DNA of 64,000 bases. It comes from an uncultured Alphaproteobacteria bacterium (GTDB lineage Bacteria > Pseudomonadota > Alphaproteobacteria > Rickettsiales > JALZUV01). Of the stretch, positions 1 through 44,731 are shown piece by piece. Position numbers and translations under genes: made by a program. The notes under the pieces were generated by a model, which was not told the origin of the DNA, ran no database searches, and saw only the letters and a program-made list of their open reading frames with translations. The stretch is from the NCBI GenBank assembly GCA_963837025.1, contig CAWILT010000002.1, forward strand, positions 230,554 to 294,553, read 5' to 3'. Within the stretch, counting starts at the first letter, position 1, and every line of letters starts with the position of its first letter.

Positions 1-676
1 TGATAAGCGAATGGCCATAGGTTTTGCGCCCATTTGCATGGGTGCCGCACTGAGCGGGCGCGATAACAAAGCATCCTGTTTCAATCGCACGGGCGCGGCA
101 CAGCACATGCCAGCCGCCACGACTGCCGGTATAATGGGTGAATGCTGCCGGTATAGCCAATATGTTCGCACCCGCTTTGGCTAACACGCGATAGAGCGCA
201 GCAAAGCGCACATCATAACAAATGCTATGGCCTAAAGTTGCCTCATCCATCTGAGATAAAACCGCTTTATTGCCGGCACTAAAGCGCGATGATTCTACAT
301 GCGATTCACCTTGTGGAATGGTGACATCAAATAGATGTATTTTATCATAACGCGCCACGATTTCGCCAGAGGGAGCCAATAAATATTGTCGGTTAACATA
401 TTTGGCACCATCTTTTACTTTCATATGCAGGCTGCCAATTAAGACTGAAACATGGTGGTCTTTAACCCACTGTTTTGTTGCAGTTAATGCAGGATGCTCA
501 CTTTCATAATAAACCTGCTGATGAAATGATTCACCGCTGGCCATCAAAAAAGCATTCTCGGGTAGGGCAATAAATGAAGCCCCCATTTGCGCGGCTTGTT
601 GAACCTGCTTGGCTAGTGTAACGCAATTTTGCTCTAATGAGTCGCTACTGTTACATTGAATGGCGGCAATTTTCAT
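1..676 (-). CDS. carbon-nitrogen hydrolase (nitrilase superfamily); C-terminal end runs off the window
   Basis: Not in the ORF track (no stop in window). My reverse-strand translation from ATG 676..674 gives MKIAAIQCNSSDSLEQN...FIALPENAF...RYDKIHLFDV...LGHSICYDVRFAALY...ILAIPAAFT. These are the E / K / C(ICYDxRF) blocks of the nitrilase superfamily. Confidence 0.75.
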   Translation of the reverse strand, partial: MKIAAIQCNSSDSLEQNCVTLAKQVQQAAQMGASFIALPENAFLMASGESFHQQVYYESEHPALTATKQWVKDHHVSVLIGSLHMKVKDGAKYVNRQYLLAPSGEIVARYDKIHLFDVTIPQGESHVESSRFSAGNKAVLSQMDEATLGHSICYDVRFAALYRVLAKAGANILAIPAAFTHYTGSRGGWHVLCRARAIETGCFVIAPAQCGTHANGRKTYGHSLI

Positions 677-781
677 GCGTGTATGATGCGCCAAGCGCGC
701 AAGGATGCAACTTTTTTATGAGGTTGCACTTGAACCACTGTCGTAACTAAGCCATCTTTCATTGGCAATAGAGAGTGTAGC

Positions 782-1942
782 ATGGTTATTTCAGCAAATT
801 TAGGGTTTCCCTCAACGGGCGCACATCACGAGCTTCAAGCCGCTTTAACGGCATTTCAATCTGGCGAAATGACTCAACAAGCAGTAGAGCTAGTCGCTCA
901 AGATATTCGGCGCGAAAATTGGATGTTGCAGCATAATCAAGGGATACAGCACATTCCTAGTAATGATTTTACTTATAAATACCGTATGTTAGACACTATA
1001 TGCATGCTGGGCGCGCTTCCATTATGCTCTATACAATCGCATCAAAAATTTGATTTGAAGCAATATTGCGAACTCGCAGATGATTTTACCATACCTGCGC
1101 TGAGCATAGATATGGAATTGACGTTTTGTAATCGCAAAGCTGTGGATGAATTTTTAGAAGCTAAAGCGATAGGTATTCATACGCGCCCCGTTTTGATCGG
1201 CCCATTGAGCATATGCCAATTAGCAGGTCTTTCGATTGAAGATAAGCAGATAATTGCCCCCAAAATTGTGGCGGTCTATGCGCAATTATTGAGCGAACTG
1301 GCAGAAGTAGGAGCCAATTGGGTGCAATTCGATGAGCTAAGTTTGAATGCGCAAACCAGCGGCGATGAGCTTGAAATATACATGCAAACCTATCAATCGC
1401 TACGCAAAACATCGCCCAAATTGCATCTGATGGTTACCACACAGGGAGATTTAGGTGGAAATCTTGAAGCGGTGAGTCAGTTGCCTTGTGCCGGTGTGCA
1501 TTTAGATTTAGTGCACGCACCACACCAGCTTGAAGCTGCGTTAGTTATTTGGCCAGCAAAAAAGGCGCTTTCGCTAGGGGTGGTAGATGGCCAATCCATT
1601 TGGCGTAGTGACTTAAAGCAAGCGGTTAAATGGGGGGAAGCGGCAGCAGATGCCATTGGTCATGCATGGGTGCAAATCGCATCCACCCAAAGCTTAGAAT
1701 CACTGCCTTACGATGCGCTAAATAGGGAGCAGTTGGATGCAGAGTTAAAAACCTATGTCAGCTTTGCAAAGCAAAAACTAGCCGAGATTGCCACCGCCGC
1801 AACCGGTGTGAGCAAAGGCAGAGGCGCCATTCGAAGCGAAATTGAAACGAATCAAAAGGTGTTAGCACATTGGCAAGCCTCACCTTATCAAGATAGCGAG
1901 CAGGTGCTGCAATTAATAGCAAGCGAACAAACACTAGTTTAA
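782..1942 (+). CDS. MetE N-terminal-domain-like protein (Meth_synt_1 half only; catalytic C-terminal half absent)
   Basis: Collinear with the E. coli MetE N-domain: LGFPSTGAHHELQAAL vs LGFPRVGLRRELKKAQ, WVQFDE vs WVQIDEP, GVHLDLVHAP vs GLHVDLVHGK, LDAELKTYVSFAKQKLAEI vs LDAEVKSWFAFALQKCHEL. It stops at the interdomain linker. Confidence 0.6.
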   Translation: MVISANLGFPSTGAHHELQAALTAFQSGEMTQQAVELVAQDIRRENWMLQHNQGIQHIPSNDFTYKYRMLDTICMLGALPLCSIQSHQKFDLKQYCELADDFTIPALSIDMELTFCNRKAVDEFLEAKAIGIHTRPVLIGPLSICQLAGLSIEDKQIIAPKIVAVYAQLLSELAEVGANWVQFDELSLNAQTSGDELEIYMQTYQSLRKTSPKLHLMVTTQGDLGGNLEAVSQLPCAGVHLDLVHAPHQLEAALVIWPAKKALSLGVVDGQSIWRSDLKQAVKWGEAAADAIGHAWVQIASTQSLESLPYDALNREQLDAELKTYVSFAKQKLAEIATAATGVSKGRGAIRSEIETNQKVLAHWQASPYQDSEQVLQLIASEQTLV

Positions 1943-29281: not shown

Positions 29282-29367
29282 GGAGGGGTGGCTGAGCGGT
29301 CAAAAGCAACGGACTGTAACTCCGTCGGAGTATTCCTACGCAGGTTCGAATCCTGCCCCCTCCACCA
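29282..29367 (+). tRNA. tRNA-Tyr (anticodon GUA), class II with long variable arm, CCA encoded
   Basis: Acceptor stem GGAGGGG/CCCCTCC, anticodon stem ACGGA/TCCGT with loop CUGUAAC, T-arm GCAGG-TTCGAAT-CCTGC, discriminator A. Close to E. coli tRNA-Tyr. Confidence 0.95.
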
Positions 29368-29708
29368 TTTACAATTACAAACGCCCTTTATGGGTGTTTT
29401 TTTATGACTGAAAAAAGCGTGTTTCTGCGCTGTTTAGCCTGTGCGTGTGAGCACTGTTAGAAAAATTTACAGGGCAAAATTCTCTCTCAAACCTCTCATT
29501 CTCTCACGGCTCTGAGCACCTTTGCGATTTTCCGTACTCACCTTAACGCCTTGATTTACAATCATTTTCAAAAATGATGGTTGGCATCCTATGAATGGTA
29601 TCTTTTTTACTGGTTTTCTAACTTTTCAAATTTTTTTCATCAGCCTTCGTCATTTCGTCATCCGATTTTGTACCGGCCTGAGAACAACAACAAATATGGA
29701 GTTCTCAC

Positions 29709-29945
29709 ATGCGATTAAGTACAAAACTGCCCGATGAAATGAGCGCGAATGAGCGTTTAAAAGAAATAGCATCCATTCTGGCCAAGGCCTTATCCAGAGA
29801 TAATCAGGACGATGCCAACATATTGAAAAACCTTGATAATAAGAGAGGTTTGACTGGACTTCCCGTCCCTTCGAAGCATTCATGCTCTAACAACAAAAAA
29901 TTCTCAAAACACAAGGGAAATGAAGGAGTTAGACATGAAGATTGA
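29709..29945 (+). CDS. hypothetical small protein
   Basis: ORF with a GGAG Shine-Dalgarno. Lies upstream of the DUF2924/recombinase module. Weak support only. Confidence 0.3.
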   Translation: MRLSTKLPDEMSANERLKEIASILAKALSRDNQDDANILKNLDNKRGLTGLPVPSKHSCSNNKKFSKHKGNEGVRHED

Positions 29946-30408
29946 TGTTGTAAAAACAGCGGCGGAGTTTGAAAGCATGAGCGCAAAAGAGCTGTTGGCG
30001 GAATGGCCGCGCTATTTTGATGATCCGCCAAAAAGCAGATCGAACAAAAGCTATCTGATGGGCGAACTGATTTACCGTATTCAGGAGTTGTCATACGGCG
30101 GTTTGACCAAGCAGACGATTGATCGGCTGGAGGCACTGGCTGAAAACAAATCCTTGAAAGAACGTAAAGGCGATGTCTCCCGCCTTGCCATCGGCACAAG
30201 ATTGGTGCGGGAAGTCAAAGGCGTTGAGCATCATGTCACGGTGCTGGAGGAAGGCTACGAGTATCAGGGCGTTAAATATAAAAGTCTCTCTGGTGTGGCA
30301 TATGCCATTACTGGCACGCGCTGGAACGGTAATGTGTTTTTTGGCCTCGGCAAAAAGGAAAACCCTCGCCCCTATAGACGATCTCGAAAAATCGGAGGGG
30401 GTCAATAA
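29935..30408 (+). CDS. DUF2924-family protein (recombinase-associated)
   Basis: LLAEWPRYFDDPPKSRSNKSYLMGELIYRIQELSYGGL, typical of DUF2924 from memory. AAGGAG lies 6 nt before ATG 29935. The stop overlaps the recombinase ATG. Confidence 0.7.
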   Translation: MKIDVVKTAAEFESMSAKELLAEWPRYFDDPPKSRSNKSYLMGELIYRIQELSYGGLTKQTIDRLEALAENKSLKERKGDVSRLAIGTRLVREVKGVEHHVTVLEEGYEYQGVKYKSLSGVAYAITGTRWNGNVFFGLGKKENPRPYRRSRKIGGGQ

Positions 30409-31766
30409 TGCAGCAAAAGAAAATTGTCCGTTGCGCCATCTACACCCGCAAGTCCACTGAAGAAGGCCTCGATATGGATTACAACACGCTGGATGCCCAG
30501 CGCGAGGCGGGTGAAAAATATGTCGAGGCGATGAAGCATGAAGGCTGGCGTATCATTCCTGATCTGTATGATGATGGCGGGTTCTCAGGTGGGAACATGG
30601 ACCGCCCAGGCTTGAAGAAGCTGATTGAGGATATTAAAGCCGGTCGCATTGATACGGTGGTGGTCTACAAGGTCGACCGTTTGACACGCTCGCTTGCTGA
30701 CTTTGCCAAACTGGTGGAAGTGTTTGATGCATATGGCACGAGCTTTGTCTCCGTCACCCAGCATTTTAATACGCAAGACTCCATGGGGCGATTAACGCTC
30801 AATATCCTGCTCAGTTTTGCCCAGTTTGAACGTGAAGTCACGGGCGAACGCATCCGCGATAAGTTTGCCGCATCAAAGAAGAAAGGCATGTGGATGGGCG
30901 GTCCGCCCCCGCTGGGTTATGATGTTGTTGATCGTAAACTCATCATCAATCCTGTTGAGGCCGATCAGGTTAAGTATATTTTTGAGACCTATGTCCTGCT
31001 TGGCGGGTCTATTTCACTGGTTTTGAAAAAGCTCAATGATGAAGGCTATAAAACCAAATCTTACACCAGTCGTACAGGCCAACGCCGAGGGGGCCATAAA
31101 TATGGTACCGCGACAGTCAAAACCATTTTGAGAAACAGGCTCTATATTGCCGAGGTTCATCACAAAGGCACGTATTACCCAGGACAACACCGACCGATTA
31201 TATCAATGGAGCTGTTTAACAAGGCACAGGAAGTTCTTGCTGAAAAAGCGACGGTAAAAAGCAAACGCACTTATGCAGCCAAATCGAAGTCTTTGTTGAG
31301 AGGAATTATTGTTTGTGGCGGGTGTCATGGGGCGATGTCGCCCACTTACACCAAGAAAAAGAATAAGCGCTATGAGTATTACGTTACCAATTCCTATCGC
31401 CAGCACAGTTGCGGTGAATGTCCAGTCAGCCGCATCCCTGCGGGTGAAATTGATGCCATCATCAAGGGACAGCTCAAAGCCATTTTTGCAAGCCCAAAAA
31501 TATTGGTTGAGGTTTGGCGACAGGCGAAAAAAGACAATCCCGCATTTCAGGAATATGAGCTGCATGAAAGTTTAAAGCGGCTGGGATCATTTTGGGATTT
31601 GCTCTACCCCGGCGAACAAAAGCGCATCACGCAGTTACTGATTTCACGGGTGGTGGTCAAATCTAACGGTGTCGATATCGAATATCGCGCCAGCGGGATT
31701 GAGGATGTTGTCCACCAGCTTCAGCTTACCATCAATAAACAAGAGCAATTAAGGGAGGCATCATAA
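30408..31766 (+). CDS. large serine recombinase
   Basis: Resolvase catalytic domain (AIYTRKSTEEGL..., VVVYKVDRLTRSL, ERIRDKF), then a recombinase domain and a Cys-rich zinc ribbon (CGGCHGAM...CGECP). Confidence 0.9.
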   Translation: MQQKKIVRCAIYTRKSTEEGLDMDYNTLDAQREAGEKYVEAMKHEGWRIIPDLYDDGGFSGGNMDRPGLKKLIEDIKAGRIDTVVVYKVDRLTRSLADFAKLVEVFDAYGTSFVSVTQHFNTQDSMGRLTLNILLSFAQFEREVTGERIRDKFAASKKKGMWMGGPPPLGYDVVDRKLIINPVEADQVKYIFETYVLLGGSISLVLKKLNDEGYKTKSYTSRTGQRRGGHKYGTATVKTILRNRLYIAEVHHKGTYYPGQHRPIISMELFNKAQEVLAEKATVKSKRTYAAKSKSLLRGIIVCGGCHGAMSPTYTKKKNKRYEYYVTNSYRQHSCGECPVSRIPAGEIDAIIKGQLKAIFASPKILVEVWRQAKKDNPAFQEYELHESLKRLGSFWDLLYPGEQKRITQLLISRVVVKSNGVDIEYRASGIEDVVHQLQLTINKQEQLREAS

Positions 31767-34728: not shown

Positions 34729-35070
34729 ATGAGCATGAGCAAAAAGACACATCTACCAATCCCCGTGCAGAAAGCCTTAAGAAGGCTTGGCAAAGACATT
34801 AGCGATGCTCGCCGCCGCCGTCGCATTGCTATGGAGCTGATGTCTGAGCGCGCAGGGTTTTCGCGGATCACTTTATCCAAAATTGAAAAAGGTGATCCAA
34901 GTGTGTCTATGGGTTCATACGCTTCGGCTCTCTTTGTCTTGGGCATGATCGATCATCTGGGTGGGATTGCGGACGCGTCTCACGATATTGTCGGGCGTGA
35001 GTTGGAGGAAGAAAGCCTGCCAAAAAGAATTCGAGCGCCACAATCTAACAAAGGGGAAGCCAATGAGTAG
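34729..35070 (+). CDS. hipB: Xre-family HTH antitoxin, HipB-like
   Basis: LRRLGKDISDARRRRRIAMELMSERAGFSRITLSKIEKGDPSVSMGSYASALFVLG. 8-nt overlap with hipA. Confidence 0.8.
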   Translation: MSMSKKTHLPIPVQKALRRLGKDISDARRRRRIAMELMSERAGFSRITLSKIEKGDPSVSMGSYASALFVLGMIDHLGGIADASHDIVGRELEEESLPKRIRAPQSNKGEANE

Positions 35071-36331
35071 CCAGCAAATTTACGTTTCCATTGAGCTTGG
35101 CGACGAAACATTCAAGGTTGGAAAGCTTTGGTTTCACCAACGTGGTGCGCGACAAAGCGCTTCCTTTGAATATGAGCCAGAATGGCTGAAACATTCAGAA
35201 AAGTTTGCATTAGACCCTGCGCTCCAATTAACCGAAGGTGCGTTTCATACCACACCGGATCAGATTTTATTTGGCGCTATTGGTGATTCTGCTCCTGACC
35301 GTTGGGGGCGCGTCCTAATGCGCCGTGCGGAAAGTGCGCGCGCCAAATTGGCTGGAGAAACAACACGAACGCTCTCTGAGGTAGATTATCTCCTGGGCGT
35401 AAATGATGAAGCACGCCAAGGCGCATTACGCTTTTCTTTGGAAGATGGCGGCCCATACCTCACACCAAAAGATAAAGAAAGCATCCCACCGCTGATTGAT
35501 CTGCCCAGATTGCTCTCGGCAACAGAGCGTTATCTCAATGATGATGAAACAGCCGAGGATTTGAAAATATTATTGGCGCCTGGCTCATCCCTTGGTGGTG
35601 CACGACCAAAAGCATCCGTTCGAGACAAAGACGGCCATCTTGCCATCGCCAAATTCCCGAAAAAAGATGATGAATTCAACGTGGTTGTCTGGGAGGCTGT
35701 TGCACTCACTTTGGCAGAAAAAGCAGGCATCACGACGGCAGAATGGCGCTTGGAAACAATCATGGACAAGCCTGTTTTGATTTTACGCCGTTTTGACCGT
35801 CAGGATGGGAAGCGTGTGCCTTTCTTATCAGCAATGAGCATGTTGGGCGCAAAGGACAATGACCCTCACAGTTATCTTGAAATTGCCTATGCGTTGACGC
35901 AAAGCGGTGCGAATCCAAACAGTGATCTGGAAGAATTGTGGCGGCGGATTGTGTTTACGGTTTTGATTTCCAATACAGATGACCATTTAAGAAATCATGG
36001 ATTTTTATATGAACGCCATAAAGGTTGGCGTTTATCACCTGCCTATGACGTTAATCCGACGCCAGTTGAAATCAAAGCAAGGATGTTATCAACCTCAATT
36101 GATTTTGATGACCCCACCGCATCTATTGATTTGGCATTATCCGTTATTGATGATTTCAGAATCAAGAAATCACGGGCGCAGAAAATTATCAGAGAAGTTG
36201 CCACGGCGGTCAGTGAGTGGCGGCCTGTTGCTACACAGTTTGATTTAAGCAAGAAGGAAGCTGATCGCATGGCTTCTGCTTTTGAGCATGAAGATTTAAA
36301 AAAAGCGTTAGGTATAAAAGATGAAAATTAA
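35063..36331 (+). CDS. hipA: HipA-family serine/threonine kinase toxin
   Basis: N-terminal coupling domain (VGKLWFHQRG...FEYEPEWL), SLGGARPKASV, catalytic loop ISNTDDHLRNHGFLY. ATG 35063 preferred to the track start. Confidence 0.9.
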   Translation: MSSQQIYVSIELGDETFKVGKLWFHQRGARQSASFEYEPEWLKHSEKFALDPALQLTEGAFHTTPDQILFGAIGDSAPDRWGRVLMRRAESARAKLAGETTRTLSEVDYLLGVNDEARQGALRFSLEDGGPYLTPKDKESIPPLIDLPRLLSATERYLNDDETAEDLKILLAPGSSLGGARPKASVRDKDGHLAIAKFPKKDDEFNVVVWEAVALTLAEKAGITTAEWRLETIMDKPVLILRRFDRQDGKRVPFLSAMSMLGAKDNDPHSYLEIAYALTQSGANPNSDLEELWRRIVFTVLISNTDDHLRNHGFLYERHKGWRLSPAYDVNPTPVEIKARMLSTSIDFDDPTASIDLALSVIDDFRIKKSRAQKIIREVATAVSEWRPVATQFDLSKKEADRMASAFEHEDLKKALGIKDEN

Positions 36332-37433
36332 AGATATTGTAAAACCGGAAACTTTGTCTGCATTAGAAGAAATCAATAATAGATATGCTTCTTTGAATAA
36401 GGCTTTGTATTCTTCTCCCGCTGTACAACTCATGCAACAACTTGAAGCTCAAAGTTTGTCTTTAAATAAATATCTCCAGCCCTATGCGGACATCGCACAA
36501 GCTTTTCGTCTATCAATTGCTCCTAAAATGGAAGCTTTTGCTGCATTACAATCGAGTTTGGCGCCACTTTCAAAGCAACTGCTTGAATTCAGAAGTCCTC
36601 TGCAGGAAGCTCTTGAGCAAATTCAAAAACAAACAGCACCGCTACAAGAGGCAATGAAGCGGTTTCAGGATATTCAAAGTCGTATAGATTATTCTCAAAT
36701 CAATGAAGCTTTTCGCAGCATTACAGATGTCATTAACAGCATCCCAAGAGATCGTCTGATAAAACTCCGGCTTCACTCCCAATATTGGCTTATCAGTGAT
36801 GATGAATTACTTCTGGCCGTAGGTGATAATGATAATTTAGAGGCAGAGTCGTTAACTGATTTTGTTATCGGTTATTACAAGGATAACAATTGGACGCGCA
36901 TGGCTAATATGGTTCAAACTTGGCAGATTTCAATTAGTCAAGAACGCTTAGATATCTTTAATAGTGCATTACAGCATACTCAAACAGCATCTTCAGAAGA
37001 TGTTCATTTACTTACTGTCCCAGCATTGATTGCCCAAATTGATGGATTAATTAGAGAGCTCTACTCATGCCTACCAAAAGAAATAAAAAAACGTATAGAA
37101 AAAGAGATAACAGATAGCCTACCAGAAGAGATTAAGTCTAAAAGAATAGATACTCGTCCCAATCAAGTTGTGGCTAGTGTTGCAGAGCTTGTAGATTATT
37201 GGTCAGCAGAAATCCTACAAGAAGCTATTTATGAAGGCCTTTTTAAGTCATCCAATAATATAACAGCGGATGGAAGCTATTCGCTTTATCGTCATAAAAT
37301 TATGCATGGAGATAAAGACTTCTTAAGATACGGAAACGAAGAAAACTTTGTACGCCTTATGCTTTACGCTGATTTTATAATTAACTTAATCAATCAAGTT
37401 AAAACTGAGCCTCCTAAAGTAAGTGCAGCATAA
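36321..37433 (+). CDS. hypothetical protein; N-terminal helical repeats, C-terminal HEPN-like R-x4-H motif
   Basis: The ATG lies 11 nt inside the hipA 3' end. AT-rich. SLYRHKIMHGDKDF and PALIAQIDGLIRE. No family recognised with certainty. Confidence 0.6.
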   Translation: MKIKDIVKPETLSALEEINNRYASLNKALYSSPAVQLMQQLEAQSLSLNKYLQPYADIAQAFRLSIAPKMEAFAALQSSLAPLSKQLLEFRSPLQEALEQIQKQTAPLQEAMKRFQDIQSRIDYSQINEAFRSITDVINSIPRDRLIKLRLHSQYWLISDDELLLAVGDNDNLEAESLTDFVIGYYKDNNWTRMANMVQTWQISISQERLDIFNSALQHTQTASSEDVHLLTVPALIAQIDGLIRELYSCLPKEIKKRIEKEITDSLPEEIKSKRIDTRPNQVVASVAELVDYWSAEILQEAIYEGLFKSSNNITADGSYSLYRHKIMHGDKDFLRYGNEENFVRLMLYADFIINLINQVKTEPPKVSAA

Positions 37434-37559: not shown

Positions 37560-37768
37560 CCCTTCCCTGTTATAGCAAAAAAGGTACTTCCGGCGATTGA
37601 ACCCTATGCGGCGGGCTTAGGCGCAGGAGTTTTTTAGCGCCAGAAGATTTTTTTGGGTACGCGCCCCCACCGCCAATCATCAAAAAACCAGTCAGAGCAA
37701 CGTGTTCAAGGTGCGTACCTTGGCGCGTACTCATGCGTACCTGACTGCAAAAAAGGAATTTGAATTTG

Positions 37769-38345
37769 TGGATCATCGTTCCCTTAACATTTTGTCCTTG
37801 TGCGCCGGTGTCGGCGGACTCGACCTCGGCATCCGAGTGGCGCAGCCAAATGCTCGAGCAGTCTGTTTTGTCGAGATCGAAGCCTTTGCGTGCGAAATCT
37901 TGGCAACGCGCATGGAAGACAAAAGCTTGGACGAAGCGCCTGTTTGGACGGATTGCCCCCGCGATCACCGGAGGCGATGGAGAAATTGATGGGACCGAAC
38001 GGTCAACGGGCGGGACGATCCCGTCCGAGCAATCTTCGGGAACAGATTATGTGGCCGACCGTGACCGCACAGGATTCCAAAAACAATGCAGGGCCGAGCC
38101 AGTTTGTGCGGAACACGAAGCCGTTGAATGTGGAAGCTGTTTGCCATTCCCACCCGCACCCGAAGGCAATTGGAACGGAATCCCAGCCGGTCTTAAACCC
38201 GCAATTTGTCGAATGGCTGATGGGCTGGCCCATCGGGTGGACAGAATTCGAGCCTGTGGAAACGGTGTCGTCCCATTGGCTGCCGCTCATGCGTGGGGCG
38301 TTCTTACAACTGCAGCAAATGGAGGAAAATAAAAATCATGACTGA
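37769..38345 (+). pseudogene. C5 cytosine DNA methyltransferase, internally deleted and frameshifted
   Basis: Motif I LSLCAGVGGLDLG in one frame. WPTVTAQDSK and LNPQFVEWLMGWPIGWTE in a second. DRIRACGNGVVPLAAAHAW in a third. No PCQ catalytic motif in any frame. Confidence 0.65.
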
Positions 38346-39621
38346 TGCAAAATCAAAAGAACTGAAAATCGAGCATGTATCGGTTGATGACCTGATCCCT
38401 TATGCCAAAAATGCGCGCACACATTCTGATACGCAGGTGGCGCAGATTGCAGCATCGATGACGGAATTCGGGTTTGTGAATCCTATTCTGCTGGGTGAGG
38501 ATAATATCATCATTGCAGGGCATGGGCGTTTGATGGCGGCGAAACTGCTGGGCATGAAAAACGTGCCAACCATTCGCCTGAACCATTTAAACGAAGCACA
38601 GCGCCGTGCGCTGGTGATTGCGGATAATAAAATTGCTGAGAACGCGGGTTGGGATGAAACCCTGCTGCGGGAAGAATTATCCGCGCTGGAAGATTTGGAT
38701 TTCAACATAGACTTGTTGGGTTTTAATGCTGAGGAATTGGACAATCTGTTCTTGGATGATGCCAATGCCGCTGGCGGCTTAACCGATGAAGATGCAGCAC
38801 CTGAAGTGCCAGAAACGCCTATCAGCGTCCCTGGCGATATTTGGATTTGCGGTGAGCATAAAGTGCTGTGCGGCGACTCCACCATGATTGATAGTTACAA
38901 TGCCTTGTTAGGTGAAGAACTGGCGGACATGGTTTTTACCGATCCGCCTTATAACGTCAATTACGCAAACTCCATGAAAGACAAAATGCGGGGTAAAGCC
39001 CGCCCGATCCAAAATGATAATCTGGGCGATGGGTTTGGCGATTTTCTCTATGATGTTTGCACCAATCTGATGATGGTGTGCAAAGGCGCAATGTATGTGT
39101 GCATGAGCTCGTCCGAGCTTCATACGCTGCACGGCGCATTTGTTGGCGCAGGTGGCAAATGGTCGACCTTTATCATCTGGGCAAAAAATACCTTCACGCT
39201 GGGGCGGGCGGATTATCAGCGCCAGTATGAGCCGATCCTTTATGGCTGGAAAGATGGGCATGAGCATTTTTGGTGCGGGGCCAGAGATCAAAGCGATGTT
39301 TGGTTTGTGAACAAGCCTGTTAAAAATGACCTGCACCCCACCATGAAACCTGTGGAGCTGGTGGAGCGTGCCATTCACAATTCCAGTAAAACCAAGGATA
39401 TTGTTTTGGATGCGTTTGGCGGTTCGGGATCAACCATGATCGCCTGCGAAAAAACAGGTCGCCGCGCCAGATTGATTGAGCTTGATCCCAAATATGTCGA
39501 TGTCATCGTCAAACGTTGGGAGGATTTTACAGGGAAGAAAGCCGTTTTAAATTCTACAGAAAAGGAGTTTGATGAATTGGCTAAATCCCGGAAAAAGAGT
39601 AAAGTAGATGAAATTAATTGA
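38338..39621 (+). CDS. ParB-like nuclease domain fused to N6-adenine/N4-cytosine DNA methyltransferase
   Basis: VDDLIPYAKNARTHS...IIAGHGRLMAA (ParB N-terminal domain), FTDPPYNVNY (motif IV), VLDAFGGSGSTMIA (motif I). Confidence 0.9.
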   Translation: MTDAKSKELKIEHVSVDDLIPYAKNARTHSDTQVAQIAASMTEFGFVNPILLGEDNIIIAGHGRLMAAKLLGMKNVPTIRLNHLNEAQRRALVIADNKIAENAGWDETLLREELSALEDLDFNIDLLGFNAEELDNLFLDDANAAGGLTDEDAAPEVPETPISVPGDIWICGEHKVLCGDSTMIDSYNALLGEELADMVFTDPPYNVNYANSMKDKMRGKARPIQNDNLGDGFGDFLYDVCTNLMMVCKGAMYVCMSSSELHTLHGAFVGAGGKWSTFIIWAKNTFTLGRADYQRQYEPILYGWKDGHEHFWCGARDQSDVWFVNKPVKNDLHPTMKPVELVERAIHNSSKTKDIVLDAFGGSGSTMIACEKTGRRARLIELDPKYVDVIVKRWEDFTGKKAVLNSTEKEFDELAKSRKKSKVDEIN

Positions 39622-39630
39622 GGGAACATA

Positions 39631-40641
39631 ATGGCAGAAATTTCATATTTTCAAAAATACTCGCAACGAGAAAATCATATCACCAATAATACGATGCTTA
39701 TGTTCCGGCATATCTATCGTCATAATCCGTTGCGCTTTGAAAAGTTTTTGAAAGAAATCATATCTGACGCTCAAATTGATATTGGATTGGTTTTTAGCCA
39801 ACAAATCAGAGAGCAAAGCAGCATCCCAGATGGGTACATTCGTCAAACTCCATTGAGCATTTACATTGAAGCAAAAGCCGACGGCGAGCTTTATTTGGAA
39901 CAAATTCAACGTCATGTCGATAGTGTTGTAAAATCAAACCTTCCGAAAGGTTCTGCAGTAATAATAGGGTTGGCAAAGAAGCAACCCAATGAAGCAGTTA
40001 TCAAAGAATTTGAACGTGTTTGTAATGATGTGGGTATTCATTACACGACCATTACATATTTAGAATTAGTGGCCTTGCTAAACGACAAGGGTATTTTTCC
40101 AGAACATGAAACTGATTTACAGGAAATAATTGAAGATTATGAGACATTCTTAAGATCAGACGGAATGTTACCAAATCCCTACGAAATGGTGGCTTTCCCC
40201 TGCGGAACATCTTGGGACGAGAACATTAAATACAGCATATATTACGAACAATCTTCCAAATCCTCTAAAGCGCATGTTCCATATATAGGAATTTACAACA
40301 ATAAAAAAATCACTCACATCGCCGAAATTCTTGGGACTTGCATTTGTAAACCTGAAAAAGATGGTCTGGTCTTTGAAAAAGAATATGGATGCGTATCACA
40401 AGAAGACATAGATAAAATCCGAGATGTGATCTCGGCGACTAATTACTATGATCTTAATCAAGGATTAGAAAGATATTACCTCTTGGGCGATCTTTATGAA
40501 GTTAATATCGAGAAAAAATCTTCTGGCGGTATTCGTGGTCACAGATACTTTGATTTACAAGAGTTATCCGGTGATAAAATTTTGCCAGAAGATTCCATAG
40601 AAGACATATCAAAAAAAGTTTCAGGCAGTAGCTTTATCTAA
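39631..40641 (+). CDS. hypothetical protein with N-terminal PD-(D/E)xK nuclease-like motifs
   Basis: GAGGGA Shine-Dalgarno, 9 nt after the methylase stop. RENHITNNTMLMF ... IPDGYI ... LSIYIEAKADGEL ... QIQRH. AT-rich. C-terminal 200 aa unrecognised. Confidence 0.55.
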   Translation: MAEISYFQKYSQRENHITNNTMLMFRHIYRHNPLRFEKFLKEIISDAQIDIGLVFSQQIREQSSIPDGYIRQTPLSIYIEAKADGELYLEQIQRHVDSVVKSNLPKGSAVIIGLAKKQPNEAVIKEFERVCNDVGIHYTTITYLELVALLNDKGIFPEHETDLQEIIEDYETFLRSDGMLPNPYEMVAFPCGTSWDENIKYSIYYEQSSKSSKAHVPYIGIYNNKKITHIAEILGTCICKPEKDGLVFEKEYGCVSQEDIDKIRDVISATNYYDLNQGLERYYLLGDLYEVNIEKKSSGGIRGHRYFDLQELSGDKILPEDSIEDISKKVSGSSFI

Positions 40642-40920
40642 AATTTTGTAACGCCGCACGCCATCAACACGTTCGCTGATAATCTCTGCGCCTGCTTTTT
40701 TGAGGATAGAGAGATGCCCGCGCACGGTGTGGGCTTGCCAGCCGGTTTGTTTGGTTAGCTCCTCAATCGTCGCCCCCTTATCGGATTTGAGCAGTTGCTC
40801 AACCAGCGTCTTCTTGGTGATTTTTGGCGCTGGCTCTGCTGTAGTTTCGGGCGTTGTTTCGACGGCCTCGACTGGCTTTGCATCAAGGGCTTCAATTGGT
40901 TTTTTGCTTTGTTTTGTCAT
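40621..40920 (-). CDS. DUF3489-family protein
   Basis: KKTLVEQLLKSDKGATIEELTKQTGWQAHTVRGHLS...RRYKI. Met at 40920. Confidence 0.7.
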   Translation of the reverse strand: MTKQSKKPIEALDAKPVEAVETTPETTAEPAPKITKKTLVEQLLKSDKGATIEELTKQTGWQAHTVRGHLSILKKAGAEIISERVDGVRRYKILDKATA

Positions 40921-41003
40921 GGTTTTTCCTTTCTGTTGTGATGTCCATGAATGCTTCAATAGGCACGCTTATCAAGTCAATAATCCTTAAAAAGTGAGAG
41001 AAT

Positions 41004-41504
41004 ATGGGACTTTCAATCAGGAAATACGCCACATTGCGCGGTGTAACCGAAGGCGCTGTGCGGAAAGCTATCAGCTCGGGGCGCATCACGCCGAATGAGG
41101 ATGGCACAATCGATGTCGAACGGGCGGATCGTGAATGGAAAGAAAATACCGATGAGGCAAAAATCAATACGGGTCTGCCGGTGATGACCGAGAACATGCC
41201 CGCCGCCAACGGCAAGCCATCGTTTACCAAAATCAAAACGGCGCATGAGCTTTATAAGGCGCAGCTGACACAGCTTTCCCTACAGGAAAAGAAAGGACAG
41301 CTCATCAACAAAGACATGGTGAAAACCCAAGTGTATCGCCTGGGGCGGCAGGTTCGGGATAGCTGGCTGAATTGGCCTGCGCGTGTGTCGGCCTTGATGG
41401 CTGCTGATCTGGGCATTGACGAACACGCTCTTCATCAGGCGTTAGAGCGCTATGTGAGGGAGCATTTAAATGACATTGGAGAGGGAAAACTCAATTTCGA
41501 TTGA
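41004..41504 (+). CDS. phage terminase small subunit (Nu1-like HTH)
   Basis: LSIRKYATLRGVTEGAVRKAISSGRI... N-terminal HTH. Position and overlap with the large subunit. Confidence 0.7.
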   Translation: MGLSIRKYATLRGVTEGAVRKAISSGRITPNEDGTIDVERADREWKENTDEAKINTGLPVMTENMPAANGKPSFTKIKTAHELYKAQLTQLSLQEKKGQLINKDMVKTQVYRLGRQVRDSWLNWPARVSALMAADLGIDEHALHQALERYVREHLNDIGEGKLNFD

Positions 41505-42990
41505 GTATGACGCGGCATTTGTTCAAAACGTCTACCTCAAAAGTTTCACCCCCGAACCGCATTATGATGTTGCCGATTGGGCCGATAAATATCGCCTGTT
41601 ATCGGGTAAATCCGCAGTAGAACCTGGGGAATGGAAAACCGCCCGCACGCCTTACCTCAAAGAGGTAATGAACCAGCTTTCCACCAGCTCGCCCGCACAG
41701 CGCATTGTGTTTATGAAGGGCGCGCAGGTCGGCGGAACGGAAGCCGGTAATAACTGGATTGGTTATATCGTGCATATGGCGCCAGGGCCGATGATGGCGG
41801 TATCGCCCACGGTGGAGCTGGCCAAGCGTAATTCGAAACAGCGGATCGAGCCGTTGCTGCAGGAAACGCCGGAATTGCGCGAGCGTGTAAAGCCTGCGCG
41901 CGAACGGGATAGCGGTAATACAATCCTGAGTAAAGAATTTGAAGGCGGTCTGTTGATTATGACGGGGGCAAATTCGGCGGCGGGTCTGCGCTCTATGCCT
42001 GCGCGGTATTTGTTTATGGATGAGATTGATGCCTATCCAGGGGACGTTGGCGGCGAAGGTGATCCGATCCTGCTGGCCGAACGCCGAAGCGCGACATTCC
42101 GCCTGCGCCGTAAGATTTTTATGGTGAGTACGCCAACAGTGAAAGGAATATCCCGTGTGCAGCGTGAGTTTGAGAAAAGCGATCAGCGCTATTTTTTTGT
42201 TCCTTGCACGAAATGTGGCCATTACCAGCATTTGCGCTTTACACAACTGCGCTGGCCTGAGGGCGATCCGGAAGAAGCTAAATACGCTTGTGAATCCTGC
42301 GGGCGTCTCATGCATAATCATGAGAAAACCTTACTGCTATCCAAGGGTGAATGGCGGGCAACGGCGGAAAGCATTGATGGCACGGTTGGTTATCATTTGT
42401 CATCGCTCTACAGTCCCGTCGGGTGGTTTAGCTGGTCGGATGCGGCAACGCTATTTGAAGAAGCCAAGCGCAATCCCGATCTCATGAAGGGTTTTGTCAA
42501 CACGGTGCTGGGTGAACCTTATGAGGAATCATCCGAAGCGCCGGAATGGCAACGCATTTATGAGCGCCGTGAAAAATACAGCCAGGGTGTTGTGCCGATG
42601 GGCGGTTTATTCCTCACCGCCGGTGTGGATGTGCAAAAAGACCGTCTTGAATGTGAAGTGGTGGCTTGGGGACGCAACAAACAAAACTGGTCGGTGGATT
42701 ATATCATCATCGATGGGGATACCGCCCGCCAAGATACATGGGATCGGCTCGCGGTCGAAGTCTTGGAACGTGATTGGCTTCATGCCTCTGGTCACACCAT
42801 GCCCATTCGGGTGATGGCGGTGGATTCCGGTTATGCCACGCAGGATGTTTACGCCTTTGTGCGCCAGCATCCGCAGGCCGTTTGGGGTGGTTCGGGCGCA
42901 CGCGCCAGCCAGCCACGCACTGTGGTTGCCATTAAGGGACAAGAGCGCAATACGGCGCTGATCTTGAGCGTGTCCAAAGCTGATGCGTAT
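41470..42990 (+). pseudogene. terminase large subunit (lambda GpA family), 3'-truncated by deletion and fused in frame to a portal fragment
   Basis: FMKGAQVGGTE, YLFMDEIDAY, zinc-ribbon-like CTKCGHYQ...CESCG, VDVQKDRLECEVVAWG, MAVDSGY. The junction coordinate is approximate (42980..43010). Confidence 0.8.
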
Positions 42991-43915
42991 TTGGGCTTTG
43001 GCGTCGATATCAGCGATTGGGAGCGTATCCCCTCAGTGACCAGTTTTGGTCGCCGCCGTGTTCTGCATATTCATGATAAGGAGCGCACCGGGCAGCATCG
43101 TGGGAAGCCGCTTCTGACTTCCATCATGCCGATGTTTAAAATGCTGGATCATTATGAAAGGTCCGAGCTTCAGGCGGCGGTGGTGAATGCCATGATTGCG
43201 GCGTTTATTGAAACACCGCTGGATGGTGAAAGCATTGGCGAGATGTTTGGCGGGTCGGTGGATGATTACCTCGCCGCCCGTAATGAATGGGATATTCGCC
43301 TGCAGGGTGGATCAATTATTCCGATATTTCCGGGCGATAAAGTTGCGCCCTTTACGCCAAGCCGCCCGAATAGCGGCTACGGTCAGTTTGTTGAGAACGT
43401 ACTGCGCCATATTGGTGCGGGTTTGAATATTCCGTTTGAATTGTTGATGAAGGATTTTTCCAAAACCAACTATTCAAGCGCCCGGGCGGCACTCTTGGAG
43501 GCATGGCGATATTTTTCGGCGCAACGCCAGTGGCTTGCCACCTACTGGGCAAGGCCTGTTTATGAACTATGGCTGGAAGAAGCGATTAACAAGGGGCTCA
43601 TTGAAGCCCCTGATTTTTATGAGAACAAAGCCGCATGGACACGGTGCAAGTGGATTGGTCCCAGGTCGTGGTTGGGTTGATCCTGTCAAAGAAGCCAAAG
43701 CAGCCCATCTAAGGATGCAGATTGGTCTTTCCACGCTGGAAGATGAATGTGCCAGCCAAGGCTTGGATTGGGAAGAAGTCTTGGAACAGCTTGCCCGTGA
43801 AAAAGCCAAGATCACTGAGCTTGGCCTCACGATCAATGATGTGAACAGCATTTTAAACACCAACACTCAAGAAAAAGAGGATAACGATGAGAATCTGGAA
43901 CCGCATAACCGGTGA
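42991..43915 (+). pseudogene. lambda-family portal protein, C-terminal fragment, frameshifted
   Basis: VLHIHDKERTGQHRGKPLL...SELQAAVVNAMIAAFIE...YSSARAALLEAWRYF. Deleting the extra A at 43663 restores WIGPGRGWVDPVKEAKA. Confidence 0.75.
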
Positions 43916-44356: not shown

Positions 44357-44731
44357 ATTAAGAAGTTAAACGATACCAGATGTAAAAATGCGAAGCCATT
44401 TGATCCTCCATCGAGGTCTCCTCGTAAGTTGGCGGATGGAGAGGGGTTGTACCTTTGGGTATTCCCTGACGGAGCAAAGAGATGGAGATTTGTTTATAAA
44501 CTTAAAGGAAAACAAAAGAATGAAGCCTTGGGTGTTTATCCAGAAGTGAGCCTAAGAGAAGCAAGAGATAAAAAGGCCGAGGCTAGAAAACTTATAAAAG
44601 AAGGTAAAGACCTCTCACTTGAACGTAAAAAACAGAAACTATTGGCCAATCAAAATAGTGATAATACCTTTGAGAATGTGGCGCGTCGATGGTTTCAAAC
44701 TAATTTTAAGATAAGTTTATTTAGACCTTAG
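44357..44731 (+). pseudogene. P4-type tyrosine integrase, N-terminal (DUF4102-like) stub
   Basis: My upstream extension plus the track ORF gives KKLNDTRCKNAKP...RKLADGEGLYLWVFPDGAKRWRFVYKLKGKQKNEALGVYPEVSLREARDKKAEARKLIKEG...TFENVARRWF. No ATG, and no catalytic domain. Confidence 0.75.

Follow-up and report, generated by a model that had tools for sequence, protein, structure and literature searches.

The DNA analysed here is a 64,000-nucleotide window (contig CAWILT010000002.1, positions 230,554 to 294,553, forward strand) from an uncultured alphaproteobacterium. It carries a prophage in which the gene for a ParB-domain DNA methyltransferase is followed closely by an open reading frame (ORF) of 336 codons. 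The protein encoded by this ORF and its relationship to the methylase are the subject of this work. The methylase gene lies at 38338..39621 on the forward strand (an alternative GTG start is found at 38293) and encodes 427 or 442 residues depending on the start. It combines a ParB_N domain (Pfam PF02195, 7e-6) with a beta-class N6_N4 methyltransferase domain (PF01555, 8e-27); FTDPPYN precedes AFGGSGST, the beta-class motif order. The TGA of the methylase occupies 39619-39621 and nine nucleotides separate it from the ATG of the 336-residue ORF (39631..40641, forward strand). A Shine-Dalgarno sequence, GAGGGA (39620..39625, forward strand), was read from the sequence and overlaps the methylase stop codon; the junction is TTGAGGGAACATAATG (in a longer reading, ...AATTGAGGGAACATAATG). 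The ORF is convergent with the gene of a DUF3489 helix-turn-helix protein (40621..40959, reverse strand; Pfam PF11994, 2e-18), their 3′ ends overlapping by 21 nt. A first-pass annotation of the window had given the same methylase stop, GAGGGA sequence, nine-nucleotide gap and 336-residue ORF, all of which were re-read in the sequence. It had proposed either a restriction-modification (R-M)-like pair or a nuclease with an unknown sensing domain.

The ORF sits in an AT-rich cassette of ~1.1 kb (39543..40647, neither strand assigned) with ~36% G+C content (GC), delimited by blastn against two related contigs, L028 and L029, and by a step in GC. The methylases of L028 and L029 are 94% and 93% identical to that of the window, and both contigs are without the ORF: homology ends at 39542 and resumes at 40648. 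At this empty site L028 has only ~72 bp where the window has the cassette, and its methylase and DUF3489 genes, which converge, meet stop codon to stop codon. In the window the methylase owes its final ~79 nt to the cassette and the DUF3489 gene its final ~27 nt, and the ORF lies wholly within it. The GC of the ORF is 36.3% (32.9% at third codon positions) against 47.7% (51.9%) for the methylase, in line with the earlier remark that the nuclease gene is the AT-richer of the two; the downstream DUF3489 and terminase genes have 49-53%. GC steps down, then up, at exactly the indel boundaries. Because L028 and L029 show an empty site, and the GC step at the same coordinates agrees, we conclude that the ORF was acquired separately from the methylase, as had been suggested. 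A scan for promoters and terminators around the cassette gave signals no better than those of shuffled sequences.

Domain organisation of the 336-residue protein

The N-terminal domain (residues 1-155; 39631..40095, forward strand) was assigned as a PD-(D/E)xK nuclease from residue conservation, from the topology of an AlphaFold2 (AF2) model and from PDDEXK_4 matches in relatives. The peptide motifs RENHITNNTMLMF, IPDGYI, LSIYIEAKADGEL and QIQRH are all present and, judged on their conservation in relatives, exceed chance. Conservation was assessed in 167 representatives sharing 25-40% identity with the 336-residue query. Conservation among these reaches at least 96% for each of Glu-14, Asn-15, Thr-18, Asn-19, Gln-58, Asp-67, Gln-72, Glu-80, Lys-82, Gln-91 and His-95. 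The catalytic residues, on whose conservation the first-pass annotation had made its proposal depend, are kept: Asp-67 in 99%, Glu-80 in 100% and Lys-82 in 99%, with Glu-14 in 96%. The full-length AF2 model, built on the alignment, has a mean predicted local distance difference test score (pLDDT) of 87.8. DSSP places helices at 16-31, 33-44 and 89-102 and strands at 53-57, 68-72, 76-81 and 109-115 of this model. The order of elements in the domain is α-α-β-β-β-α-β-α-β, which contains the α-β-β-β-α-β core. Asp-67 starts strand β2, and Glu-80 and Lys-82 sit at the C-terminal end of β3 (76-81). The ordered PD-(D/E)xK elements that had been reported in the first ~100 residues are thus present, conserved and correctly arranged in the model. 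A restriction-type core is predicted, although Foldseek searches of the PDB with the full-length model returned weak matches only (EcoT38I, E 9.6e-3).

Sequence searches with the 336-residue query itself gave no significant match in Pfam, PHROGs, PADLOC, NCBIfam or the PDB sequences. None of the PADLOC-DB 2.0 system models was significant for the ORF; the only match was to PD-Lambda-5_A, with an E of 0.006 over 50 residues. Scanned singly, 43 of 137 relatives matched PDDEXK_4 of Pfam (best 4.2e-6), the only family to recur; we take the N-terminal domain to be a distant relative of it. The match covers residues ~70-165 in all four members inspected, that is, the segment from ExK to the end of the N-terminal domain. 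It scores below the Pfam gathering threshold of 22.3 bits in these four and in the window protein, which unlike those relatives gives no match of its own. PDDEXK_4 (PF14281) has no assigned function (PMC3424549). Short of biochemistry, we take it as established from sequence and model that the N-terminal domain is a predicted PD-(D/E)xK nuclease.

The remainder of the protein (residues 158-336; 40102..40638, forward strand) comprises a linker helix and a β-barrel-like domain, which the domain model and Foldseek identify as a candidate PUA/ASCH-like reader. Conserved residues are Asn-198, Tyr-204, Gly-220, Tyr-222, Lys-225 and Lys-295. Modelled separately, the domain has a pLDDT of 89.3. Nothing strong was found in the PDB by Foldseek. 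The top match is the EVE domain of VcaM4I, a type IV enzyme (4.7e-3), and further weak matches are TTHA0113 (8.4e-3, template modelling score (TM) 0.48), the ASCH domain of ASC-1, PH0355 and 1wk2. Comparison with the 5-hydroxymethylcytosine (5hmC)-binding domain of CMoRE/PD-T4-3 (9u75) fell below significance (TMq 0.32, E 0.39). In BFVD the domain matched a viral 320-residue 'PD-(D/E)XK nuclease superfamily protein' (2e-4), an unnamed 122-residue protein (2.7e-4, TM 0.58) and ASCH-domain proteins (3.4e-3 and lower). Its profile has no similarity to PDB sequences, and hhalign found none to a YqfB-like ASCH sequence. The first-pass annotation had recognised nothing in the remaining ~230 residues, and our sequence-level searches of the domain were likewise empty. 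The other option it had offered, a nuclease joined to an unknown sensing domain, fits the finding of a conserved but unrecognised C-terminal domain. We regard this half of the protein as a new sequence family, with a PUA/ASCH-like fold as the candidate from modelling. END nucleases, which use an iEndoIII sensor, were considered and rejected: the C-terminal domain is β-rich and the END sensor a helical helix-hairpin-helix domain.

Relatives of the ORF and of the methylase

The ORF has 29 close relatives in a word-indexed database. A profile search of 1.84 billion representatives returned 1393 clusters (50% identity) at E ≤ 1e-3 and 480 at 1e-30, from Proteobacteria, Acidobacteria, Verrucomicrobia and Firmicutes. 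Of the 150 relatives listed, nearly all have ~335 residues and can be aligned over their full length, and those that are shorter are truncated. No homologue was found in 50,697 phage genomes. The genes occur on a Macrococcus plasmid, adjoining IS200/605, inside a his operon and beside an integrase in an integrase island. Defence genes recur among the neighbours. In Aureimonas sp. Leaf427 (L018, 6431..12819) a homologue lies directly between the gene of an Aga restriction endonuclease associated with prokaryotic Argonaute (pAgo) and a DRT type 1 gene. In L013 (2..4407) another is located between hsdR and hsdM/hsdS of a type I system. Homologues also adjoin DISARM-like helicase and methylase genes, and one sits beside a BanI R-M system, which has its own nuclease. 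PADLOC matches around homologues include pAgo with the Aga endonuclease, DRT1, Hhe/PDC-S37, SIR2-HerA, Old and AriA/GajA-type ATPases, and UvrD/GajB-like and SoFic genes are also found next to them. The L013 locus continues with an M78 peptidase/DUF4411 gene and an E2/ThiF/JAB gene; L013 and L018 are both dense defence islands.

The genes of this family have no conserved neighbour acting as a partner, antitoxin or regulator. None of 66 flanking ORFs in 12 named genomes matches any of seven reference DNA methylases, and there is no DNA-methylase family among the 25 most frequent Pfam families listed for homologue neighbourhoods. Relatives at 81% and 67% identity have no adjacent ParB-methylase, and about 20 further contexts are without such a methylase. 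L012, the locus of the 81% homologue, has an EgtD-like methyltransferase upstream of it; this was tried as a partner and rejected, as it is a Methyltransf_33 protein and not a DNA methylase. Taken together, the relatives form a large unnamed family of two-domain nucleases that are solitary and occur in defence islands, and the 336-residue protein is a member of it.

The ParB-methylase, for its part, is the usual phage-borne methylase upstream of a terminase module. It matches PADLOC MTase_II at 3.8e-176 and phrog_498 at 8.8e-165, and has relatives in 1229 phage records and at least 597 IMG/VR contigs. The conserved gene order is methylase, DUF3489 on the opposite strand, an ORF at the small-terminase position and the large terminase. 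Comparisons were made in the best 80 IMG/VR contigs fetched with the methylase (L028-L107). The DUF3489 gene follows the methylase in most of these 80 and is a conserved member of the phage module, outside the cassette. The 336-residue ORF is missing from 78 of them. Only two IMG/VR contigs carry it, L108 and L041 (the same as L109), one of which is among the best 80. Across the 80 contigs the slot between methylase and DUF3489 ranges in length from 10 to ~3100 bp, with unrelated contents: a cargo hotspot of this phage group. L033, for example, has here a 352-residue DUF3644-like protein that bears Zn ribbons and an Rx4H motif, and L105 an epimerase-like ORF; many small ORFs occur as well. Elsewhere, L112 has at 601..939 a 112-residue protein of KDGV(V/I)RDGSS.GAG repeats between a methylase of 89% identity and an ORF of 96% identity. 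In L119 (1330..1656) and L121 (1..1777) the methylase is frameshifted, and the 60%-identical homologue of the ORF is interrupted after about residue 104 by another ORF of 336 residues on the opposite strand, a putative insertion sequence (IS) transposase.

Possible function and competing explanations

From the material above the protein is probably a solitary defence nuclease and a positional neighbour of an orphan phage methylase. With no protecting methylase, the nuclease must spare host DNA, most likely by requiring a modified base. Our fuller explanation is therefore that of a stand-alone two-domain defence nuclease that would depend on modification in the manner of type IV enzymes and be carried as a prophage moron; we would give this complete account an even chance of being right. 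Genes of this family travel as single-gene cassettes through defence islands and mobile elements. Here the cassette occupies a cargo slot of variable content in a defective prophage, with the ParB-methylase on one side and the DUF3489/terminase module on the other. The C-terminal domain may bind or flip a modified base, plausibly of the 5-methyl- or 5-hydroxymethylcytosine type, and the N-terminal domain would cut near it, as type IV enzymes do. The window, L108 and L041 all retain an intact ParB-methylase, so its own mark is evidently tolerated.

Several known enzymes offer comparisons. PvuRts1I and AbaSI are type IV enzymes dependent on 5hmC or glucosyl-5hmC; they have ~300-330 residues, an N-terminal PD-(D/E)xK-type nuclease, a C-terminal SRA-like reader of the PUA superfamily and no methylase. 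The 336-residue protein resembles them in being a solitary single polypeptide with the nuclease first and a putative PUA-type reader last. It differs in that no sequence or Foldseek match to them was returned and in that its C-terminal domain appears closer to ASCH/EVE than to SRA. Lutz et al. (2019) described modification-dependent restriction endonucleases built as PUA-superfamily fusions, among them VcaM4I and TspA15I (EVE-HNH) and YenY4I (EVE-DUF3427-PD-(D/E)xK); they report the sensor of the non-SRA fusions as N-terminal and the nuclease as C-terminal (PMC6765204). Such fusions of PUA folds to nucleases cut 5-methylcytosine (m5C) or 5hmC DNA and seldom have a methylase nearby, and plasmids that carry them are toxic to Dcm+ cells (PMC6765204, PMC7897488). 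The likeness to our protein lies in the pairing of a nuclease with a PUA-fold sensor of modified bases, a putative one in our case, and in genes that are usually not next to methylases. The domain order, however, is reversed, there is no sequence similarity, and VcaM4I and TspA15I have an HNH nuclease where ours is PDDEXK_4-like. CMoRE/PD-T4-3 is a single gene with a GIY-YIG nuclease at its N-terminus and a C-terminal 5hmC-sensing domain (PMC12923530); it shares a weak C-terminal fold match with our protein but has GIY-YIG in place of PD-(D/E)xK as its catalytic domain. The prophage-borne type II R-M enzyme EcoT38I is likewise a PD-(D/E)xK nuclease of ~340 residues with a weak fold match, whereas the 336-residue family is without a conserved cognate methylase. 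The kind of enzyme proposed, a type IV nuclease with a PUA-fold reader, is thus already known. What would be new, going by the model, is a reader domain as yet outside any sequence family and a domain order opposite to that of the EVE-HNH group.

A further clue comes from a C5 cytosine methylase, which in this prophage group often sits just upstream of the ParB-methylase. The window has a remnant of it at 37702..38345 (forward strand), recognised by Pfam PF00145 on the first fragment and by comparison of frames with the intact L028 gene (3781..4992). About 640 bp, including PCQ and ENV, are deleted, and motif I and motif X (GNGVVP) are in different frames. L041 has a TAG at codon 247, so that its C5 protein ends short of motif X; the C5 gene is intact in L039 and L042, close relatives of L041 without the ORF, and absent altogether from L108. 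The frame is open and PCQ, ENV and GNGV are present in nine of nine ORF-negative contigs (L028, L033-L037, L039, L042 and L100). The C5 gene is therefore damaged in the two ORF-positive prophages that still have it and in none of the nine ORF-negative ones (Fisher exact p = 1/55), a post hoc test that ignores phylogeny and uses metagenome assemblies. The lesions are suggestive as one clue that fits modification dependence. They raise a more specific proposal, which we hold only tentatively and think rather doubtful: a widespread and previously undescribed single-protein type IV family, nuclease first and ASCH-like reader last, that would target C5-modified cytosine and whose arrival would select for loss of the prophage's own anti-restriction C5 methylase. 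The window deletion and the L041 nonsense codon would then be two independent lesions of one conflict. An overlapping ORF was also seen here: in L028 (3701..5008) ~405 residues rich in WPTP/WATP repeats overlap the C5 gene in another frame. Its C-terminal part is kept in the window at 37800..38345, and it is either a real overlapping gene or a frame artefact.

Several observations weigh against modification dependence and a C5 target. The fold matches of the C-terminal domain are weak (Foldseek E 2e-4 to 0.4, TM 0.3-0.58), and at the sequence level it has no link to ASCH, EVE or SRA. Separate profile searches with the N- and C-terminal domains found neither fused to other partners, returning only the same ~330-residue architecture or fragments, and so a modular 'sensor swap' argument is unavailable. 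A BanI-type C5 methylase gene that appears intact lies ~1.5 kb away from a 41%-identical homologue; any m5C dependence would therefore have to be specific to context or variable among members. The window prophage decays generally, so its C5 deletion could be unrelated, and the L041 stop could be an assembly error. A defence nuclease blind to DNA modification is a possibility we take seriously while thinking it improbable. It might be an abortive-infection effector triggered by a phage protein or a nucleic-acid structure, or an enzyme directed at RNA. The defence-island neighbourhoods and a solitary gene with intact catalytic residues would suit it. ASCH/PUA domains often bind RNA, and the closest folds include the RNA-binding ASCH proteins TTHA0113, ASC-1 and PH0355. 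Toxin-type cargo is also known in this prophage group (HipA in the window, AbiEii in L108). Yet the best fold matches that are linked to nucleases, VcaM4I and CMoRE, are readers of DNA modification, the inactivation pattern of the C5 methylase would go unexplained, and the gene is adjoined by no conserved partner, antitoxin or regulator.

The R-M or addiction pair, in which the ParB-methylase would protect the site that the 336-residue nuclease cuts when unmethylated, draws on the arrangement in the window itself: both genes are on the same strand, nine nucleotides apart, with a Shine-Dalgarno sequence overlapping the methylase stop, and PADLOC scores the methylase as MTase_II. The order of methylase followed by ORF also recurs in three diverged lineages, namely the window with L108 and L112 (96-97% ORF identity to the window), L119 with L121 (60%) and L041 (53%); in L119 both genes are damaged together. 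ORF divergence, however, roughly parallels methylase divergence across the three, which looks like one old insertion that was inherited and then frequently lost. The recurrence is better explained by inheritance of one cargo slot than by functional coupling. Moreover, an extra gene stands between the two in L112, and the methylase family is widespread in phages beside terminase genes with no adjacent homologue of the ORF. Since homologues are solitary (those at 81% and 67% identity and the ~20 further contexts included), the methylase is common without the ORF (78 of 80 contigs), the closest contigs show a clean empty site and the slot is variable, the nuclease does not appear to be the methylase's partner. 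On the sequence evidence their neighbourhood is positional, the R-M-like pair of the first-pass annotation is not upheld, and we consider such a system quite unlikely. We think equally little of a role outside defence, as a selfish homing-type endonuclease or a phage recombination or repair nuclease spreading as a cassette. Such an element could account for a single-gene indel with precise boundaries, the AT-rich composition and unrelated locations such as a his operon and IS elements. Against it, the family is absent from the phage genomes searched and is repeatedly placed between other defence systems, its insertion sites have no common target gene, and a conserved sensor-type second domain would be unexpected in a repair nuclease.

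If the modification-dependent defence nuclease is correct, the ~1,400 clusters of this unnamed family would gain a function as compact one-gene modification-dependent nucleases. A new reader domain would join the PUA-type sensors for tools that detect epigenetic bases. The prophage would also be a case from nature in which a phage's protective methylase clashes with a modification-dependent nuclease carried on the same element. For annotation there is a warning: a PD-(D/E)xK gene that lies nine nucleotides behind a methylase need not form an R-M system with it.

State of the prophage and its surroundings

Downstream of DUF3489, the region 41004..43680 (forward strand) encodes a conserved 166-residue ORF at the small-terminase position and then a gpA terminase-portal fusion, as identified with Pfam and by comparison with L028 and L108. 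The fusion ORF (41470..43680) contains GpA_ATPase, GpA_nuclease and Phage_portal_2, the last being the C-terminal half of a lambda-type portal. A deletion of ~1.37 kb joins the two; relative to L028 and L108, about 1.4-2.6 kb are absent at ~42984. The fusion of terminase to portal marks the prophage as defective.

Upstream, 34729..37433 holds a toxin pair, a HipB-like helix-turn-helix protein and a HipA kinase, followed with an 11-nt overlap by a 370-residue ORF. This ORF has 36.7% GC and no family match, and may be another separately acquired cargo gene. At the place equivalent to the HipA region, L108 has an AbiEii toxin. Two further regions are likely borders of the prophage remnant or island. 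One, at 29282..31766, has a tRNA-Tyr, then a DUF2924 gene and a large serine recombinase. The other, at 44429..44731, lies beside rfb-like genes and encodes a 100-residue piece of the Arm DNA-binding domain from a tyrosine integrase.

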